Part shown: piece after piece, positions 3,666-26,684 of the stretch
Layout of the letters: the number at the start of each line of letters is the position of its first letter
Position numbering within the stretch: position 1 is the stretch's first letter
Sequence record: MZ436830.1
DNA length: 64,000 nt
From: Escherichia phage JK1
Strand: one strand, 5' to 3'
Notes under the pieces: model-generated
The model's database searches: none
Seen by the model: the letters and a program-made list of their open reading frames with translations, nothing else
Told to the model about the DNA's origin: nothing
Translations under genes and position numbers: made by a program

Positions 3666-4303
3666 TGAATGAACCCCAATTACTAATTGAAACTTGGGGT
3701 CAACCTGGCGAAATTATTGATGGCGTACCAATGCTTGAATCTCATGATGGAAAAGACTTAGGTTTAAAACCTGGTTTATACATCGAAGGAATATTCATGC
3801 AAGCGGAAGTCGTCAATAGAAATAAACGTCTTTATCCAAAACGTATATTAGAAAAAGCGGTAAAAGACTATATTAATGAGCAAGTTTTAACTAAACAAGC
3901 TCTCGGAGAATTAAATCATCCTCCACGCGCTAATGTTGACCCGATGCAAGCCGCTATCATTATAGAAGATATGTGGTGGAAAGGAAATGACGTATACGGA
4001 CGAGCTCGTGTTATTGAAGGTGACCATGGTCCTGGAGATAAATTAGCAGCTAATATTCGTGCCGGATGGATTCCAGGAGTTTCTTCTCGTGGATTAGGTT
4101 CATTGACTGACACAAATAAAGGTTATCGTATCGTAAACGAAGGATTCAAATTAACTGTAGGTGTTGATGCAGTATGGGGTCCAAGTGCTCCAGATGCATG
4201 GGTAACTCCTAAGGAAATTACCGAATCACAGACGGCGGAAGCCGATACAAGTGCCGATGACGCCTATATGGCTCTCGCAGAGGCCATGAAAAAAGCGTTA
4301 TAA
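3665..4303 (+). CDS. 21: Prohead core protease gp21
   Basis: 212 aa ORF matching recalled T4 gp21 length and sequence; translationally coupled to gene 68. Confidence 0.9.
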   Translation: MNEPQLLIETWGQPGEIIDGVPMLESHDGKDLGLKPGLYIEGIFMQAEVVNRNKRLYPKRILEKAVKDYINEQVLTKQALGELNHPPRANVDPMQAAIIIEDMWWKGNDVYGRARVIEGDHGPGDKLAANIRAGWIPGVSSRGLGSLTDTNKGYRIVNEGFKLTVGVDAVWGPSAPDAWVTPKEITESQTAEADTSADDAYMALAEAMKKAL

Positions 4304-4306
4304 ATA
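4299..4306 (+). promoter_or_regulatory. Late promoter TATAAATA (gene 22)
   Basis: Exact motif overlapping gene 21 stop, 28 nt upstream of gene 22 ATG. Confidence 0.6.
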
Positions 4307-4333
4307 TTATTATCTAAACAACAGGACTACAAA

Positions 4334-5143
4334 ATGCTTAAAGAACAACTGATTGCTGAAGCGCAGAAAATTGATGCTTCCGTTGCTCTTGATAGTATTT
4401 TCGAATCAGTTAATATTTCTCCGGAAGCAAAAGAAACTTTCGGCACTGTATTCGAAGCTACCGTCAAGCAGCACGCCGTTAAATTAGCTGAATCTCATAT
4501 CGCTAAAATTGCTGAAAAAGCAGAAGAAGAAGTAGAAAAAAATAAAGAAGAAGCAGAAGAAAAAGCTGAGAAGAAAATCGCTGAGCAAGCTTCTAAATTC
4601 CTTGACCATCTTGCAAAAGAATGGCTCACTGAAAATAAATTAGCAGTAGATAAAGGCATCAAAGCCGAACTGTTTGAATCCATGCTTGGTGGATTGAAAG
4701 AGCTCTTCGTTGAACACAACGTTGTTGTTCCAGAAGAATCAGTTGATGTTGTAGCTGAAATGGAAGAAGAACTGCAAGAACATAAAGAAGAATCAGCTCG
4801 TCTGTTCGAAGAACTCAATAAGCGTGACGCATATATCAATTATGTGCAGCGTGAAGTGGCATTGAGCGAAAGTACTAAAGATCTGACTGAGTCTCAAAAA
4901 GAAAAAGTCTCTGCTCTGGTCGAAGGTATGGATTATTCAGATGCATTCTCAAGTAAATTGAGTGCAATCGTAGAAATGGTGAAGAAATCTAATAAAGATG
5001 AAAGCACTATTACTGAGAGTATAAATACTCCTGATACTGAAGCAGCCGGACTGAATTTCGTCACTGAAGCTGTAGAAGATAAATCTGCACAAGGTGCAGA
5101 AGATATTGTAAGTGTATATGCGAAAGTCGCATCTCGTTTCTAA
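4334..5143 (+). CDS. 22: Prohead core scaffold protein gp22
   Basis: 269 aa acidic, coiled-coil-rich ORF; late promoter TATAAATA at 4299-4306. Confidence 0.9.
   Translation: MLKEQLIAEAQKIDASVALDSIFESVNISPEAKETFGTVFEATVKQHAVKLAESHIAKIAEKAEEEVEKNKEEAEEKAEKKIAEQASKFLDHLAKEWLTENKLAVDKGIKAELFESMLGGLKELFVEHNVVVPEESVDVVAEMEEELQEHKEESARLFEELNKRDAYINYVQREVALSESTKDLTESQKEKVSALVEGMDYSDAFSSKLSAIVEMVKKSNKDESTITESINTPDTEAAGLNFVTEAVEDKSAQGAEDIVSVYAKVASRF
5030..5037 (+). promoter_or_regulatory. Late promoter TATAAATA (candidate for gene 23, inside 3' end of gene 22)
   Basis: Exact motif about 125 nt upstream of gene 23 ATG; no closer copy found. Confidence 0.45.
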
Positions 5144-5161
5144 TTTTAAAGGTTAACACAA

Positions 5162-6727
5162 ATGACTATCAAAACTAAAGCTGAACTTTTGAACAAATGG
5201 AAGCCATTACTGGAAGGTGAAGGTTTACCGGAAATTGCTAATAGCAAACAAGCGATTATCGCTAAAATCTTTGAAAACCAGGAAAAAGATTTCCAGACAG
5301 CTCCGGAATATAAAGACGAAAAAATTGCTCAGGCATTCGGTTCTTTCTTAACAGAAGCTGAAATTGGTGGTGACCACGGTTACAATGCTACCAACATCGC
5401 TGCAGGTCAGACTTCTGGCGCAGTAACCCAGATTGGCCCGGCTGTTATGGGTATGGTACGTCGTGCTATTCCTAACCTGATTGCTTTCGATATTTGCGGT
5501 GTTCAGCCGATGAACAGCCCGACTGGTCAGGTATTCGCACTGCGCGCAGTATATGGTAAAGACCCAATCGCTTCCGGCGCTAAAGAAGCATTCCACCCAA
5601 TGTATGGTCCAGATGCAATGTTCTCTGGTCAGGGTGCTGCTAAGAAATTCCCAGCTCTGGCTGCTAGTACTGAAACTGTTGTAGGTGATATCTATACTCA
5701 CTTCTTCCAGGAAACCGGTACTGTATATCTGCAAGCTTCAGCTGTTGTGACAATTGATTCTAGTGCAAATGATGCAGCTAAATTAGATGCTGAAATTAAG
5801 AAACAAATGGAAGCAGGTGTACTGGTAGAAATCGCTGAAGGTATGGCTACTTCTATCGCTGAACTTCAGGAAGGTTTTAACGGTTCTACCGATAACCCAT
5901 GGAATGAAATGGGCTTCCGTATCGATAAACAAGTTATCGAAGCTAAATCTCGTCAGCTGAAAGCTGCTTACTCTATTGAATTAGCACAAGACCTTCGCGC
6001 TGTTCACGGTATGGATGCTGATGCTGAACTGTCCGGTATTCTGGCTACCGAAATTATGCTGGAAATCAACCGCGAAGTTGTTGATTGGATTAACTACTCC
6101 GCTCAGGCTGGTAAATCTGGTATGACCCTGACTCCGGGTTCTAAAGCTGGTGTATTTGACTTCCAGGACCCAATCGATATTCGTGGTGCTCGCTGGGCGG
6201 GTGAATCCTTTAAAGCTCTGTTGTTCCAGATTGACAAAGAAGCAGTTGAAATTGCTCGTCAGACCGGTCGTGGTGAAGGTAACTTCATTATCGCTTCCCG
6301 TAACGTAGTTAACGTTCTGGCTTCAGTTGATACTGGCATTTCTTATGCTGCACAAGGTCTGGCTACCGGCTTTAACACTGATACTACCAAGTCAGTATTT
6401 GCTGGTGTTCTGGGTGGTAAATACCGCGTATATATCGACCAGTATGCTAAACAGGATTATTTCACTGTAGGTTATAAAGGTCCGAACGAAATGGATGCTG
6501 GTATTTACTATGCTCCATATGTAGCTCTGACTCCGCTGCGTGGTTCCGATCCGAAGAACTTCCAACCGGTAATGGGGTTCAAAACTCGTTACGGTATCGG
6601 TATCAACCCATTTGCAGAATCCGCTGCTCAGGCTCCGGCTTCTCGCATCCAGAGCGGTATGCCTTCTATTCTGAATAGCCTTGGTAAAAACGCTTACTTC
6701 CGCCGTGTATATGTTAAAGGTATCTAA
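5162..6727 (+). CDS. 23: Major capsid protein gp23
   Basis: 521 aa ORF, sequence recognisable as T4 gp23 (MTIKTKAELLNKWKPLLEGEG...); followed by GGGACC-TTCG-GGTCCC terminator. Confidence 0.97.
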   Translation: MTIKTKAELLNKWKPLLEGEGLPEIANSKQAIIAKIFENQEKDFQTAPEYKDEKIAQAFGSFLTEAEIGGDHGYNATNIAAGQTSGAVTQIGPAVMGMVRRAIPNLIAFDICGVQPMNSPTGQVFALRAVYGKDPIASGAKEAFHPMYGPDAMFSGQGAAKKFPALAASTETVVGDIYTHFFQETGTVYLQASAVVTIDSSANDAAKLDAEIKKQMEAGVLVEIAEGMATSIAELQEGFNGSTDNPWNEMGFRIDKQVIEAKSRQLKAAYSIELAQDLRAVHGMDADAELSGILATEIMLEINREVVDWINYSAQAGKSGMTLTPGSKAGVFDFQDPIDIRGARWAGESFKALLFQIDKEAVEIARQTGRGEGNFIIASRNVVNVLASVDTGISYAAQGLATGFNTDTTKSVFAGVLGGKYRVYIDQYAKQDYFTVGYKGPNEMDAGIYYAPYVALTPLRGSDPKNFQPVMGFKTRYGIGINPFAESAAQAPASRIQSGMPSILNSLGKNAYFRRVYVKGI

Positions 6728-21909: not shown

Positions 21910-21913
21910 CAAT

Positions 21914-21939
21914 GGGGACCTTTCGGTCCCCATATTTTT
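21914..21939 (+). terminator. Terminator after gene 54
   Basis: GGGGACC-TTTC-GGTCCCC hairpin then ATATTTTTATTT. Confidence 0.7.
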
Positions 21940-22228
21940 ATTTACGGAATGAAATGAAAGCAGAAACTGAAGCAACTAAACTGTCTTCAATATAAACTTC
22001 AATTTTTACCGGAGCTTCTGACTCGAATTTACCTGTTACTACACCTTGGAAAATACTTTCAGTTTGTTCTGGCTTTGAAAAATTTTCAGAAGGAAAAATT
22101 CCGAACTTTTTATCTGTTCCAAAAATTTTGATAAATTCATCATAAACTGCTTCATTAAAAGCATTATCAGCAGGAATAACGCCTTCAACTACAAGTTCTT
22201 GACCCAAAAAGCGCAAAGAAGATTTCAT
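21938..22228 (-). CDS. Hypothetical protein (alt-downstream small ORF)
   Basis: 96 aa ORF; ATG at 22226-22228 preceded by GAGGA and an early-type promoter. Confidence 0.6.
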   Translation of the reverse strand: MKSSLRFLGQELVVEGVIPADNAFNEAVYDEFIKIFGTDKKFGIFPSENFSKPEQTESIFQGVVTGKFESEAPVKIEVYIEDSLVASVSAFISFRK

Positions 22229-22236
22229 TTTGTGTT

Positions 22237-22289
22237 CCTCATGTTATGTCAGTAAGACTACTATAACACAACACGAGGGACTTGTAAAC
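22237..22289 (-). repeat. 53-bp promoter/leader cassette, copy 1
   Basis: 51 of 53 positions identical to 37451-37503; spans -35 through the Shine-Dalgarno region. Confidence 0.85.
22260..22288 (-). promoter_or_regulatory. Early sigma70-type promoter (-35 TTTACA, 17 bp, -10 TATAGT)
   Basis: Minus strand GTTTACA-17-TATAGT followed by GAGGA and ATG 22228; inside the 53-bp repeat. Confidence 0.55.
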
Positions 22290-24346
22290 TACATCTTGAA
22301 CTTTTTAGACATTCCGTTGATGTTAACCAAAGAAGCCAAGATTTGAGAAACTTCGTTTTCCTCTTCTTTTGATTCTTCTACAAGGAATTGATTAAATCCA
22401 GCCATTGGACGAACTTCACCAGTTTCCATTAAATGGTCGCCATCATATACTGATTCTTCTAATTGTTCAGAAGGAGGAACGATTGTACCTTCTATTAGAT
22501 ACTTGTTATAAGCAGTTTCTTTCATAAAGTACGTGCTCACTTTATTAATCTTCAGTAAAATTCCACGCGGTAGAATAACTTCAGCTTCTGATGGAAATCC
22601 TGATAAATGACCTGGAACGATAACTTTGATTCGCTCAGCTCCTTTAATTACCATACCCACGCTAGTTTCAGCATCTTCATTAGCATATGTAGAATGACTA
22701 CCCATATGCATCAAATCTTCTGCATCAACGGAACCTTCTCCTTCACCAGAAAATACTGCGCCGGAATCATCTAGAGCCATATAGTTTTTACCATGCTCAC
22801 CGAAGATATTTGGTTTAAGCGATGTGGATACGAAGTTCTTGAAATAGAACATTTTATTTTCAATGTTATGACGCAAAGTTTTAAAGGTAACTTCTTGCCC
22901 ACGATAAAGAGTAGTTCCTGGAGGAAGAACAGAACCTTTAGCAAATGCAGAATCCAACGTCTCGATGTGTTTAATAGCTCGTTCCATATATTCTTCACGG
23001 GTAGAATCAGGTTTACCTAAAAGGAACGAGTTCATTTCAACATATGAATCTGCACAATAATCTTCAATTACATCAGATTCAGCTTGGGTTAATCCTTTTG
23101 GAGTTACTTCGGTGCTTGCGTATTCATATGCCTGAGCAGCAGATTCATTAATCAATTTATAAATGCCATTCATTACAAATTGAATAATAGCTGTCTTTTC
23201 ATCTGGCGTAGCTTTAGAACCTTTAACCAAATCATTGATAATTTTCTTAATAACATCAAAGCTATTAGAAATATTAATGTCAGCAAGATCGCTTAAAATT
23301 TTATCAGTTTTATAATCAAAGAATTCTTTATTCTTTAAATATTCTTGAGAACCTTGATATGTTATATCGCTCTGCAACTTGATGGATGGATCACGTAAAC
23401 GTGCATGGGCTAATGCAATATGATTTCGGAAACTTTCTAGTTCATAATCGTTAGATTTAAAACGAGAAGCACTCCTCATACCACCGATAGCTCCTTTGCT
23501 GAAGTTTGAACCAATCTGAATAACGCCAGAGTTCATTGGTCCTTCTGCTTTATATACCGGAACTTTAGATTCAAACTCTTGATATTTCTTAGCAGCGAAG
23601 CTATCACCCTGAAGTGAAGCATCAACAGTAGAATATTGAGCTTGTGCTGCTAATCGACGACTAATTTTAGTTTTCTGAATAACAGCTTGATCCGTGCGCT
23701 TATCATTTTCTAAAGCAATAGAAGCAGCGACAGCGACAGCTTTAGGAACAGCATTACCTGTTTTAACGTCTACATAAACATCACCAACCTTTGATTCAAC
23801 TTTTGTGAATAACTCAGTTGAAATAGGAGGTACACCTGGAATGTCTTCTAAATTGGCATTTTTACGGTAAACCATAATATATGCATATTTCTTATCATAG
23901 TCCCAGATTTCCTTTAAAAGAACATATCGACCTGCTCCTTTAGTACGTACTAAACGGTCAGCAATAACTTGCATTTGACGAGCTGCGCCATTTGTTTTAC
24001 TTTTTAGTACGCGGAATAGGCATGCGTCGATTTTATACTGTTTCATTGTTTGAAGAGCAGTATCAAAAACAGCATTAATGACGCCAATTGGATTTCCACC
24101 CAAGTTTCTAAGCTTGACTAACGATAATTTCTCGTTGACACCTATCATTACGATATGCATCATTTTGTCGCCTGGCTTAACGTTTTTATTCGTATCACCG
24201 CCAGAGGTGTATGTACAAAATCTAAATCCAGGAAGAACGCTTTCTTCACCGGCTTGAATAGCAAAAATTTGTGGTATTTTATGCTTAGGATTTAAGTTAA
24301 CAACCGGCGCCGAAGCGCCGTCAAATAATTCTGTAATAAGTTCCAT
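22289..24346 (-). CDS. Alt-family ADP-ribosyltransferase, paralog A
   Basis: 685 aa; N-terminus MELITELFD...; C-terminal R-S-EXE-like motifs (YRGQ, FVSTSL, SEAEVILPRG) and YDGDHLMETGEV tail. Confidence 0.85.
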   Translation of the reverse strand: MELITELFDGASAPVVNLNPKHKIPQIFAIQAGEESVLPGFRFCTYTSGGDTNKNVKPGDKMMHIVMIGVNEKLSLVKLRNLGGNPIGVINAVFDTALQTMKQYKIDACLFRVLKSKTNGAARQMQVIADRLVRTKGAGRYVLLKEIWDYDKKYAYIMVYRKNANLEDIPGVPPISTELFTKVESKVGDVYVDVKTGNAVPKAVAVAASIALENDKRTDQAVIQKTKISRRLAAQAQYSTVDASLQGDSFAAKKYQEFESKVPVYKAEGPMNSGVIQIGSNFSKGAIGGMRSASRFKSNDYELESFRNHIALAHARLRDPSIKLQSDITYQGSQEYLKNKEFFDYKTDKILSDLADINISNSFDVIKKIINDLVKGSKATPDEKTAIIQFVMNGIYKLINESAAQAYEYASTEVTPKGLTQAESDVIEDYCADSYVEMNSFLLGKPDSTREEYMERAIKHIETLDSAFAKGSVLPPGTTLYRGQEVTFKTLRHNIENKMFYFKNFVSTSLKPNIFGEHGKNYMALDDSGAVFSGEGEGSVDAEDLMHMGSHSTYANEDAETSVGMVIKGAERIKVIVPGHLSGFPSEAEVILPRGILLKINKVSTYFMKETAYNKYLIEGTIVPPSEQLEESVYDGDHLMETGEVRPMAGFNQFLVEESKEEENEVSQILASLVNINGMSKKFKM

Positions 24347-24349
24347 GAT

Positions 24350-26446
24350 TTATCCTTGAACGAACTTGTAAGGCATGTTTGTAATATCTATGCAAGACGC
24401 AATAATTCCAAGAGATGATTCTACTTTCTGTTTAACGTTTGATGAAACAAATGATGCAAAGTCAACTTTGTCTTCTATTTCAATATCACCTGTCATTGCA
24501 ACTACTTCGCCGGTTTCCATTAGATGGTCACCGTCATAAATTACCGATTCGGTGAGTTCTTCTGTGGTCATAACTTCAGCTTGAATAAGTTTTGTATTAT
24601 TAGATGTTGTTCCGTCATTATTAGAAGCATCAGTTATTTTATTAACTTTAACCATCAATCCGCGCGGTAGAATAACTTCAGCTTCTGTTGCTATTCCTAG
24701 ACTTCCTGGATATACAACATTAACTTTATGTGCGCCGTCAATTGCCCATCCTATTTGAACTTTAACGTATTCAGGATTTTCTTTATACGCTCTTATTTCG
24801 TTTGGATTAATAGTTATTCCTTCTTCATTTTTATCAACTGTTAATTCATTGCGAGCTTCTGGTTCTAAAAGACCAATACCAGCATGTGTAATTCCAAAAC
24901 GTCCAAAAATGATAGGAGTTAAAGAAGTAGATACAAAATTTCTGAAGTAGAACACTTTATTTTTAACTAACGCTTCATATATAGGAGCAGTCATACTTTG
25001 AGCACGATAAACTGTAATGCCTTCTGGTATACGGTCACCATTTTCAAAAGCTGAATCTAAGTTATTTATAGCAGATTCAATTTCTTTTTCACTCATTACA
25101 TCATATCGTTCTGGATTGTAACGACCTAAAAGAAGATTATTGATGTCAGTATATCCTGAACCGCAATATTCTCTAATGCCACGCTTTTGTGATGGAGTAT
25201 ATTTAGAACCATCGCGGGCAATAGTAATATCAATCATTGGACCAGCACCAATTCCAGAAAAACTGTAAATCATTCGTTTGAGGAATTTAGTTTTTGCTGC
25301 GTTCCAGGAATTTTTAGTTATTTCTTCCCAGACTTCATCTGGTTGTCCTTTACGATTTTTATTATGATTAGCAAGCCATTTATCTTTATAATCTTCAAAG
25401 AATTGATTTACAGCTGCTGCGTATTTCTCTAAACATTTTATTGAAGTAGTTGGTTCATTTTTAATTGCATTAAAAATTACTTCTTTAATTTTTTCTGAAA
25501 CTTCACCGACTTGACTCATTGGAAAGAATTTATAATCATAGTGAAGTTCATCTGCCGTTCCTTCAGCAATAATTTTTGCTGCCTTTGTTTTAGAAGCTAA
25601 TGAATTAATTCCAATTTTCATTTCTTCTGCTTCGGGAATTAAAGGTGCAGTAGCTGGTTTATTAAAATTAGCTGCTGTAGATTCATACTTCTGGAATAAT
25701 TCACTTTCAAATCTAGAAGATTCCAATGACTGACTTTGTGCAATTGCTCTACGGGAAATTTTAACTTTAACGATTACAGCTTGGTCAGAACGTTTATCGT
25801 TTTCTTGCGCAATAGATGCTGCAATTGCCTCATTTTTAGTTACTTGGGCTCCAGTATCTTTATTGATATAAACATCACCAACCTTCGATTCAACCTTAGT
25901 AAAGAGTTCAGTACTAATTTCTGGAACTCCTGGAATGTCTTCTAGTGATACGTTTTTACGATGTATAAGAATATATGCATACTTTTTATCGTAATCCCAG
26001 AGTTCCTTAAGAAGGACGTATCTGCCACCTGAACGACTACGGATAAGTCTATCAGCAATAACTTGAATTTGTCGAGCTTGACCAGCGGTTTTAGACTTAA
26101 GAATACGAAGCATACAAGCATCAATTTTATATTGACGCATTGTTTGCATTGCAACAGTAAAAACTGAATTGATATAATTAATTGGGCTTGGACCAAGACC
26201 TTTCAATTTAGCAATTGAACCTTTAGCAGTTAATGTAAAAGGAACAATATGCATCATTTTGTCGCCCATTTTTAAATCACGATTAGTATCACCTCCAGAT
26301 GTATAGGTACATAAACGAAAGCCTGGTTGTTCAATTGCATCATCAACATGAACTGAAAAAATTTGTGGTATTTTCTTCTTTGGATTTAAGTTTGTAATCG
26401 GAAGAGTAGTATCTTCGTCAAATAATTCTGTAATGAGTTCCATCAT
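24350..26446 (-). CDS. alt: Alt-family ADP-ribosyltransferase, paralog B
   Basis: 698 aa; N-terminus MMELITELFDEDTT...; motifs YRAQ, FVSTSL, TEAEVILPRG; late promoter at 26467-26474; which copy is the T4 alt ortholog is not settled. Confidence 0.85.
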   Translation of the reverse strand: MMELITELFDEDTTLPITNLNPKKKIPQIFSVHVDDAIEQPGFRLCTYTSGGDTNRDLKMGDKMMHIVPFTLTAKGSIAKLKGLGPSPINYINSVFTVAMQTMRQYKIDACMLRILKSKTAGQARQIQVIADRLIRSRSGGRYVLLKELWDYDKKYAYILIHRKNVSLEDIPGVPEISTELFTKVESKVGDVYINKDTGAQVTKNEAIAASIAQENDKRSDQAVIVKVKISRRAIAQSQSLESSRFESELFQKYESTAANFNKPATAPLIPEAEEMKIGINSLASKTKAAKIIAEGTADELHYDYKFFPMSQVGEVSEKIKEVIFNAIKNEPTTSIKCLEKYAAAVNQFFEDYKDKWLANHNKNRKGQPDEVWEEITKNSWNAAKTKFLKRMIYSFSGIGAGPMIDITIARDGSKYTPSQKRGIREYCGSGYTDINNLLLGRYNPERYDVMSEKEIESAINNLDSAFENGDRIPEGITVYRAQSMTAPIYEALVKNKVFYFRNFVSTSLTPIIFGRFGITHAGIGLLEPEARNELTVDKNEEGITINPNEIRAYKENPEYVKVQIGWAIDGAHKVNVVYPGSLGIATEAEVILPRGLMVKVNKITDASNNDGTTSNNTKLIQAEVMTTEELTESVIYDGDHLMETGEVVAMTGDIEIEDKVDFASFVSSNVKQKVESSLGIIASCIDITNMPYKFVQG

Positions 26447-26466: not shown

Positions 26467-26474
26467 TATTTATA
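26467..26474 (-). promoter_or_regulatory. Late promoter TATAAATA (Alt paralog B, minus strand)
   Basis: Plus-strand TATTTATA 21 nt upstream of the ATG at 26446; preceded by a terminator hairpin. Confidence 0.6.
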
Positions 26475-26481
26475 AAATTAA

Positions 26482-26495
26482 AGGCCCGAAGGCCT
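26482..26495 (-). terminator. Terminator hairpin upstream of the Alt-B late promoter (minus strand)
   Basis: AGGCC-TTCG-GGCCT hairpin followed on the minus strand by a U-rich tract. Confidence 0.5.
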
Positions 26496-26684
26496 TTAAT
26501 AATCTATTGGTAAGAGAGTACGATATATTTCAAACTTTGGACCTTTTTCATAGGCATCAAATGTTTCTGTGAATTTATTATAAGCATATGCATCTATAAA
26601 TTCAATCATGATTTGTGATACAGAAGTAGAAACATCTCCACCTTCTTTTTGAGCCACGACAATTGTTTCTAAGTAAGCTTTCAT
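26496..26684 (-). CDS. Hypothetical small protein
   Basis: 62 aa ORF; 4-nt overlap with gene 30 stop. Confidence 0.5.
   Translation of the reverse strand: MKAYLETIVVAQKEGGDVSTSVSQIMIEFIDAYAYNKFTETFDAYEKGPKFEIYRTLLPIDY

Follow-up and report, generated by a model that had tools for sequence, protein, structure and literature searches.

Phage T4 has a single alt gene followed by alt.-1, alt.-2 and alt.-3, as an earlier note on this DNA correctly stated. The alt locus of Escherichia phage JK1 (MZ436830.1) looks different, and it raises the question of what a second alt-like gene is and whether it does anything that Alt itself does not. We analyzed a 64,000-nucleotide stretch of this genome (the window, to which all coordinates refer). 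The ORF list, BLASTP and Pfam agree that the alt locus of the window consists of two intact tandem minus-strand ORFs of the T4-type Alt family, and the coordinates and sizes first given for them were exact: copy B, 24350-26446(-), 698 aa, and copy A, 22289-24346(-), 685 aa. Copy B is the positional ortholog of T4 alt; a second ATG at 26443 would give it a MELITE... start and 697 aa. Copy A is the ortholog of RB14 'alt.-2' and T6 gp201.

A late promoter precedes the two copies, which are flanked by gene 30/alt.1 on one side and alt.-3/gene 54 on the other. Upstream is a 62-aa alt.1 homolog (26496..26684(-), PHROG 1976), which has the same position as T4 alt.1 and is the last gene of the gene-30 block. 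Downstream is a 96-aa alt.-3 homolog (21938..22228(-), PHROG 1739); in T4, mutants with a C-terminal extension of alt.-3 escape CmdTAC (PMC11618068). NCBIfam has no model for copy A, copy B, alt.1 or alt.-3.

The T4-type late promoter motif TATAAATA is located at 26467..26474(-), about 20 nt before copy B begins, and the same motif precedes T4 alt. The earlier note had placed it correctly but called it the only late promoter, which is slightly off because a second TATAAATA occurs inside copy B at 25063-25070(-). This internal motif is on the coding strand (codons A-I-N-N), some 720 nt ahead of the start of copy A, and a motif search of T4 alt found no counterpart. It is possibly an internal late promoter and possibly a coding coincidence. 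Just upstream of the main promoter, overlapping the alt.1 stop codon, RNA folding predicts a UUCG-loop hairpin (26477..26500(-); dG -13.5 kcal/mol, z -3.0), which is likely to be a terminator or RNA-end element that keeps the early/middle transcripts apart from the late alt unit.

The copy B stop codon (TAA, 24350-24352) is followed by a spacer of 3 nt (24347-24349, as first reported) and then by the copy A ATG (24344-24346). An AAGGA Shine-Dalgarno sequence within the last codons of copy B (24353..24357(-)) is the putative ribosome-binding site of copy A, an arrangement that suggests translational coupling of copy A to copy B. The two genes are probably co-transcribed from the TATAAATA upstream of copy B; the short spacer, the Shine-Dalgarno sequence and the upstream late promoter are all consistent with the co-transcription originally proposed. 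Beyond copy A, a sigma-70-like promoter (TTTACA-17-TATAGT with TG, 22260..22288(-), a consensus match only) precedes alt.-3, and a bidirectional terminator hairpin (21912..21933, both strands; dG -20.5 kcal/mol, z -5.5 by RNA folding) lies between alt.-3 and gene 54.

There is no doubt that the two proteins are related. BLASTP aligns them over their full length at 41% identity (E 2e-163), which is far beyond chance. Both exceed the gathering score of PF03496, the ADP-ribosyltransferase domain of the exoenzyme/VIP2 type, in a Pfam profile search (5.8e-20 for copy A, 9.8e-38 for copy B), and copy A matches PHROG 802 at 2.5e-256. PF26846 (Tevenvirinae_ADPRT) is precomputed on a cluster representative 99% identical to copy A and on all full-length relatives. 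Every motif listed previously (MELITELFD, KIDAC, STELFTKVESKVGDVY, YRGQ/YRAQ, FVSTSL, SEAEVILPRG/TEAEVILPRG and YDGDHLMETGEV) was found again, and the BLASTP and PF03496 results, together with intact catalytic residues, bear out the identification of two full-length Alt-family ADP-ribosyltransferase paralogs.

The relationship is uneven along the proteins. Copy A comprises an N-terminal domain (aa 1-237, 23636-24346(-)), an A-class helical center (aa 238-420, 23087-23635(-)), an ART domain (aa 421-631, 22454-23086(-)) and, on the same strand, a C-terminal propeptide (aa 632-685). Copy B (24350..26446(-)) likewise has an N-terminal domain of aa 1-237, a B-class helical center and an ART domain. 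The N-terminal region common to the two is about 237 aa long with 55-75% identity, and aa 1-237 of copy A show that same 55-75% identity to both copy B and T4 Alt. The ART domains of A and B are about 40% identical, and within them a second variable loop, between S-T-S and E-x-E, differs between the copies. The centers (roughly aa 238-430) are only 12-20% identical. The shared N-terminal module and the unrelated centers had both been recognized from the sequence; the length proposed for the center, about 250 aa, was too great, as it measures about 185-200 aa. Diverged homology between the centers was considered and rejected: hhalign on shallow profiles returned only a 19-column match with a probability of 1%. 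At the sequence level the A and B centers appear unrelated, and they may still have a helical fold in common. It is plausible that they are different substrate-recognition modules.

The catalytic motifs of copy A are Y-R482-G-Q (22895-22906(-)), F-V-S507-T-S509-L (22817-22834(-)) and S-E587-A-E589-V (22577-22591(-)); the corresponding residues of copy B are R480, S505-T-S507 and E587-A-E589. The loss of catalytic residues in one copy, which would have undermined the idea of two enzymes, did not occur: in an alignment with T4 Alt, ModA and ModB, the R, S-T-S and E-x-E elements are intact in both. R482, S507, S509, E587 and E589 (copy A numbering) are invariant in a 14-sequence alignment of A-type, B-type and Dhakavirus/Mosigvirus-type Alts. 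The Alt-family profile matches the sequences of the solved C3, BECa, Certhrax and Vis proteins, with its E-x-E aligned to their Q/E-x-E. A single-sequence search of the PDB with copy A matched no entry. The AF2 model of copy A (pLDDT 74.7), compared by Foldseek with the Vis, C3bot, VIP2 and CDTa structures, gave a probability of 1.0 and a TM score of 0.6-0.7 relative to the target. Sequence and model together point to a C3/VIP2-type arginine-specific mono-ADP-ribosyltransferase domain in both copies, each of which would be enzymatically active.

The earlier note held that a second intact copy would be a difference from T4. This point fails by the refuting condition that the note itself set, and with it the novelty of the arrangement, because the closest relatives of T4 are already annotated with the pair. 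In T6 (gp200/gp201) and RB14 (alt/alt.-2) it is annotated with equal gene lengths and the same 3-nt spacer; RB14 'alt.-2' (YP_002854530) and T6 gp201 (YP_010067344) are direct orthologs of copy A, 2058-nt genes in the equivalent position with 97-99% protein identity in the center and no material difference. Many RefSeq Tequatrovirus records list 'Alt-like RNA polymerase ADP-ribosyltransferase (x2)', and the T2 record, in the part that covers the copy A center, is annotated likewise. In Dhakavirus IME08 the pair is named alta/altb, with altb (2127 nt) abutting alta without a spacer; altb is likely the Dhakavirus counterpart of copy A. WG01, LHE83 and IME281, in the band below 60% identity, have an A-like center about 49% identical to that of copy A. 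The tandem layout is present in 278 records covering at least 80% of the locus, which rules out a duplication specific to the window or an assembly artifact. A natural B/A fusion with a single-copy locus also exists, and that phage keeps the A-type effector only.

The intact pair is the majority state of the T-even alt locus and already known, and T4 is a deletion derivative. Nolan et al. 2006 and the notes in the T4 GenBank record interpret alt.-1/alt.-2 as what is left of a duplicated alt, the record note specifying an old duplication of the alt start. By blastn of the window against T4 and the T4 annotation notes, the segment of copy A absent from T4 is 22309..23998(-). This internal deletion of about 1.7 kb joins some 116 N-terminal codons to the last codons of copy A, and T4 alt.-1/alt.-2 (NP_049810 / NP_049809) are what remains of those first codons. 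The T4 remnant has an internal stop and restart, whereas the window gene is intact. About 91 records, which lack copy A, have the T4-type deletion junction in common.

The broken gene in T4 might suggest that copy A is a decaying, non-functional duplicate, a pseudogene in the making. Set against this are the intact 685-aa ORF, the complete catalytic and processing motifs, a center found at 95% amino acid identity or more (95-100%) in 401 phage records, T2 included, and a dN/dS of 0.035-0.038, which indicates strong purifying selection. We give decay almost no credence, since the selection and conservation data effectively refute it.

A second enzyme maintained by selection could still be redundant with Alt, acting on RNA polymerase alpha for dosage or as a back-up. 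Redundancy would account for the tolerance of T4 to the loss of copy A, and the identical catalytic core, the roughly 91 records without copy A and the fusion phage with its A-type effector alone fit with it. Yet the centers are unrelated, and the ART domains have diverged to about 40% identity and differ in the loop from S-T-S to E-x-E. The two lineages have also been retained together in Tequatrovirus and Dhakavirus, and copy A is under strong purifying selection; simple redundancy seldom persists so long. We consider it unlikely.

Whether copy A travels in the virion is a separate matter. About 40 copies of T4 Alt are present in the capsid and are injected with the DNA (PMC5694885, PMC9026906), and the prohead protease gp21 cleaves T4 Alt at ITE-6 and LTE-619 (PMC5694885). 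Copy A has I-T-E6 (24329-24337(-)) as its N-terminal gp21 motif and, as the counterpart of LTE-619, L-E-E/S (aa 629-632, 22451..22462(-), the slash following P1 Glu631); copy B has ITE-6 and LTE-632. In the family alignment every Alt-family member keeps these motifs, with Glu6 and P1 Glu631 invariant; three residues after the latter comes a Y-D-G-D block that is likewise invariant. From these motifs, gp21 would be expected to cleave copy A at ITE-6 and LEE-631.

We searched the literature on virion proteomics (T2/T6, virion mass spectrometry) and found no copy A data; among functional or proteomic reports on a second Alt we found just the 2006 comparative note, and a 2025 Nat Commun paper on injected proteins concerns Ip1-3 and not Alt. 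The candidate proteomics papers either dealt with phages other than two-copy ones or contained no proteomics. An active copy A that is not packaged, and that acts late within the producing cell in the manner of ModA/ModB, for instance on host or phage factors while particles are assembled, would agree with its intact catalytic residues and with the lack of proteomic evidence found for copy A in virions. Such a protein would hardly be expected to keep the whole N-terminal domain, ITE-6, the LxE/S site and the YDGD propeptide, traits that mark a head protein processed by gp21 and are missing from ModA and ModB, or to have a late promoter and operon in common with alt. An exclusively intracellular role therefore seems quite improbable.

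Copy A is best read as a second arginine ADP-ribosyltransferase that is made late, packaged in the capsid and injected, and whose target range is different. The analysis demonstrates that the genes are intact and homologous, and it establishes their fold, catalytic residues and cleavage motifs, the purifying selection on them and their distribution; from this we infer when they are expressed, that the proteins are packaged, cleaved and enzymatically active, and that their targets differ. The two late genes would be read as one transcript from TATAAATA upstream of copy B, with copy A translationally coupled, to give four-part proteins: an N-terminal domain after a 6-residue propeptide, a class A or B helical center, the ART domain and a C-terminal propeptide. 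If they behave like T4 Alt, both would be built into the prohead core and trimmed at both ends by gp21 at [L/I]-x-E sites. After injection with the DNA, the enzymes would transfer ADP-ribose from host NAD+ to arginines of host proteins. RNA polymerase alpha is most likely among the targets of copy B (alt proper). The set modified by copy A is most likely different, or overlaps with that of copy B in part only. T4 lost copy A through the internal deletion of about 1.7 kb. Taken as a whole, a standard ancestral 'altB-altA' tandem encoding a second packaged, injected ART with differing targets is the best explanation of the locus, and one that we hold to be reasonably probable.

We advance a broader proposal more tentatively, as one that may well be wrong: the alt locus could work as an effector system with two slots, mounted on a virion-delivery chassis that stays constant. 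The chassis may consist of the N-terminal domain and the cleavable termini, and the slots may carry unrelated targeting segments. The A class, which is highly conserved and kept beside the B class in Tequatrovirus and Dhakavirus, would act on targets other than RNA polymerase alpha, possibly a defense or translation component of the host, and the B class may split into discrete alleles under host pressure.

As a genome feature the pair is ordinary, since most T4 relatives carry it annotated. T4, the phage of the Alt studies, does not have the second enzyme, and what has been concluded about T-even injected proteins may therefore miss part of the picture in T2, T6 and most natural isolates. The same may hold for the list of host proteins that are ADP-ribosylated at time zero. 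If the locus does work as two slots, the Alt literature would have missed one of the two enzymes injected by most T-even phages. Because copy A is conserved, intact and under purifying selection, it is a clean target for experiment.

Compared with T4 Alt (NP_049811), copy B occupies the same slot between alt.1 and alt.-3, each gene having a late promoter. Like copy A, copy B is under strong purifying selection (dN/dS 0.023-0.066). Its aa 1-240 are ~100% identical to those of T4 Alt and its last ~60 aa about 88-100%. The center is just 14-36% identical and the ART domain 58-88%, so copy B belongs to a different central-domain allele class from T4 alt. Copy A, at 41% identity overall, matches T4 Alt in its four-part architecture, catalytic triad and gp21 motifs, but its center has no detectable homology to any B-class center, that of T4 included. 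T4 ModA and ModB, ~200-aa early proteins that are not packaged (PMC5512222), fall in the same R-S-E clade as the Alts, and their catalytic residues align; they lack the Alt N-terminal domain, central segment and propeptides. The C3-like/VIP2/iota-type R-S-E enzymes (Vis 4XZK, C3bot 1G24, VIP2 1QS1, CDTa and BECa) share with the Alts an ART fold and the active-site elements R, S-T-S and E-x-E, at a sequence identity of only 13-21%. Those enzymes are toxins that bacteria secrete; the Alts have in addition a phage-specific N-terminal domain and propeptides removed by protease.

The window is a segment of a Tequatrovirus (T4-like) genome with 96.5–98.4% identity to JK38, vB_Eco_Solly, PhiZZ23 and similar phages; none of the records listed was at least 99% identical to it. 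Two minus-strand ORFs, copy A (22289–24346, 685 aa) and copy B (24350–26446, 698 aa; read from its second ATG it begins MELITE... and has 697 aa), lie exactly where an earlier note had placed them, with the 3-nt spacer it described and an AAGGA ribosome-binding site within the end of copy B. They are flanked by the DNA ligase (gene 30)/alt.1 block and by alt.-3 and genes 54 and 48, which is the T4 alt locus. The two proteins align over their full length (BLASTP, 41% identity, E 2e-163). In a three-way alignment with T4 Alt, divided into 40-column blocks, copies A and B are 55–75% identical over aa 1–237, fall to 12–20% over aa ~238–430, and are 28–45% identical in most blocks of the catalytic region, with 7% in one loop running from S-T-S to E-x-E.

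Both copies match Pfam PF03496 (ADP-ribosyltransferase exoenzyme; 5.8e-20 for copy A and 9.8e-38 for copy B) and, end to end, PHROG 802 ("Alt-like RNA polymerase ADP-ribosyltransferase"). The N-terminal domain corresponds to PF26846 (Tevenvirinae_ADPRT), according to precomputed Pfam hits on database relatives of both. R482, S507, S509, E587 and E589 (copy A numbering) are invariant in an alignment of 14 A-type, B-type, T4-type and Dhakavirus/Mosigvirus-type Alts, and the same columns stay invariant once T4 Alt, ModA and ModB are added. Since these residues are intact in both, neither copy lacks the catalytic motifs that the earlier note had read in them, and from their sequences both look catalytically competent. 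From the E-x-E form that the motif takes, both are predicted to be specific for arginine. When copy B alone was aligned with CdtA and iota toxin Ia, its Y-R and E-x-E fell on the catalytic Y-R and E-Y-E, and the family profile matched C3 (4XSG, 6e-8), BECa, Certhrax and Vis with E-x-E on Q/E-x-E. In the AlphaFold2 model of copy A (mean pLDDT 74.7), an alpha/beta N-terminal domain is followed by a helical centre, an ADP-ribosyltransferase fold at aa 480–622 and a disordered C-terminus; Foldseek matched it to Vis, C3bot, VIP2, CDTa and Certhrax (probability 1.0, TM 0.6–0.7 relative to the targets).

The late-promoter motif TATAAATA reported upstream of copy B is present at 26467–26474, but it is not strictly the only one. 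A second, perfect TATAAATA lies on the same (minus, coding) strand within copy B (25063–25070, codons A-I-N-N), ~720 nt upstream of copy A, and is missing from T4 alt. Either it is a candidate late promoter from which copy A could be read, or the match arose by chance in coding sequence. Across the whole window TATAAATA occurs 18 times, where shuffled sequences predict 8.3 and none of 100 reached 18; most of the matches are on the plus strand in the late-gene blocks at 1–12 kb and 50–55 kb; this surplus and placement are consistent with genuine T4-type late promoters. The alt.-3 homolog (21938–22228, minus strand, 96 aa) is preceded by a sigma-70-like promoter of its own (22260–22288, minus strand, TTTACA-17-TATAGT with TG), so it probably lies outside the late alt unit. 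T4 Alt.-3 mutants with a C-terminal extension evade the CmdTAC defence system (PMC11618068). The alt region is flanked by two stable hairpins: a UUCG-loop stem at 26477–26500 (minus strand, dG -13.5), which overlaps the stop codon of alt.1 and immediately precedes the late promoter, and a bidirectional terminator at 21912–21933 between alt.-3 and gene 54 (dG -20.5). The 62-aa alt.1 homolog in the T6 RefSeq record (NC_054907; gp199, 946–1134 of the excerpt) is labelled "siderophore-interacting protein", which looks like a carry-over by similarity to another phage record and not a real function.

Mass spectrometry has shown that T4 Alt is cleaved by the gp21 prohead protease behind ITE-6 and LTE-619, the latter cut stripping 63 C-terminal residues, and the literature puts the protein at about 40 copies in each head (PMC5694885, PMC9026906). 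Copy A keeps ITE-6 and has L-E-E/S at aa 629–632 (the slash marks the candidate cut), followed by an invariant Y-D-G-D block, and copy B has LTE/S at aa 630–633. Family-wide, Glu6 and the P1 Glu before Ser/Ala are invariant and P3 is always L, I or M, so that the N-terminal domain and the two propeptide junctions are the best-conserved parts common to the paralogs. Such a pattern is what would be expected if both proteins take the same route into the prohead. That copy A is active yet stays out of the virion is compatible with its intact catalytic residues, but with these junctions kept we consider it improbable. The model we lean towards, at somewhat better than even, is that both copies would be made late from one operon, enter the prohead, be trimmed by gp21 and be injected, and would then act as arginine mono-ADP-ribosyltransferases, with copy A having targets different from, or only partly overlapping, those of copy B. 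Of this, the analysis showed the architecture, the motifs for catalysis and processing, the selection and the layout of the operon; packaging, activity and targets are inferred. No experimental work on copy A was found in the searchable literature.

The proposal of differing targets draws on the central segments, which the earlier note had called unrelated, a description that holds at the sequence level. All-against-all BLAST of the centres gave two groups and no alignment joining them, and profile–profile comparison of the A-like and B-like centres returned a probability of 1%. The A-like group contains the window copy A type and the JS10 type (45% identity), and the B-like group the window copy B, T4 and P0016/P0018 types (28–39%); the P0017 centre matched neither. 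Both groups are predicted to be helical. Redundancy of copy A with Alt would fit the shared catalytic residues; with centres unrelated in sequence, we think it unlikely.

Decay of a duplicate was ruled out for both copies by low dN/dS (Nei-Gojobori, against the T6 and RB14 orthologs, respectively), and we give it almost no credence for copy A. Copy A gave 0.038 and 0.035 overall and 0.04–0.07 in its centre; copy B gave 0.066 and 0.023, and its centre 0.157 against T6.

Copy B represents a different allele from T4 Alt, ~100% identical to it over aa 1–240, 14–36% in the centre (aa 241–440) and 58–88% in the catalytic part. Probing with the copy B centre placed 314 records, including T6, in the class of at least 90% identity, with other classes (T4 and RB55 among them) at ~30–38% and the T4 type at about 35%. 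By these classes it is alt proper that is allelic, and it looks mosaic and recombining; copy A is uniform. Alleles of the two genes assort independently, as in Salmonella phage Jbel, where a 682-aa alt (P0053) that by its score resembles the T4-type class stands beside a copy A whose centre matches that of the window at 100% identity. A metagenomic phage contig (Logan SRR24155011, 65 kb) has one gene between alt.1 and alt.-3 (4001–6055), B-type over its first ~190 residues and A-type thereafter, as unequal crossing-over within the N-terminal region common to the paralogs would produce. With the other records, this puts the locus in at least three states: B with an intact A, B with only a remnant of A, and a single B/A fusion.

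In the T4 reference, alt (682 aa) precedes alt.-1 (61 aa), alt.-2 (67 aa) and alt.-3. According to the notes in that record, alt.-1 and alt.-2 reflect an ancient duplication of the beginning of alt; Nolan et al. (2006) likewise derived them from an alt duplication and reported a full-length duplicate in phage 44RR (PMC1524935). Direct comparison showed that T4 lacks window 22309–23998, leaving the first ~116 codons of copy A, which a stop now interrupts, fused to the final few codons of the gene. A probe for this junction matched in one piece in 91 records (T4 strains, RB55, RB59, VEc20, SG1, slur03 and others). A tblastn search with only the copy A centre found 455 records, 401 of them at 95% aa identity or more, including T2, T6, RB3, RB14, AR1 and HY01. 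By these counts, roughly four fifths of records at the locus are in the two-copy state and one fifth carry the T4-type deletion.

The tandem pair is thus an ordinary feature; the earlier observation was correct, and the feature is already annotated. Its residual value is modest: the model phage T4 is without the second, predicted enzyme. At least 80% of the 4.7-kb locus is covered in 278 phage records, in many of which RefSeq labels the two genes "Alt-like RNA polymerase ADP-ribosyltransferase (x2)". The pair, whose second copy was put forward as a difference from T4, is annotated in the closest relatives of T4, as alt and alt.-2 (2058 nt) in RB14 and as gp200 and gp201 in T6, with lengths and spacer identical to those here. 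In Dhakavirus IME08 the two genes are called alta and altb, and so the pair is not confined to Tequatrovirus: it exists outside that genus too.
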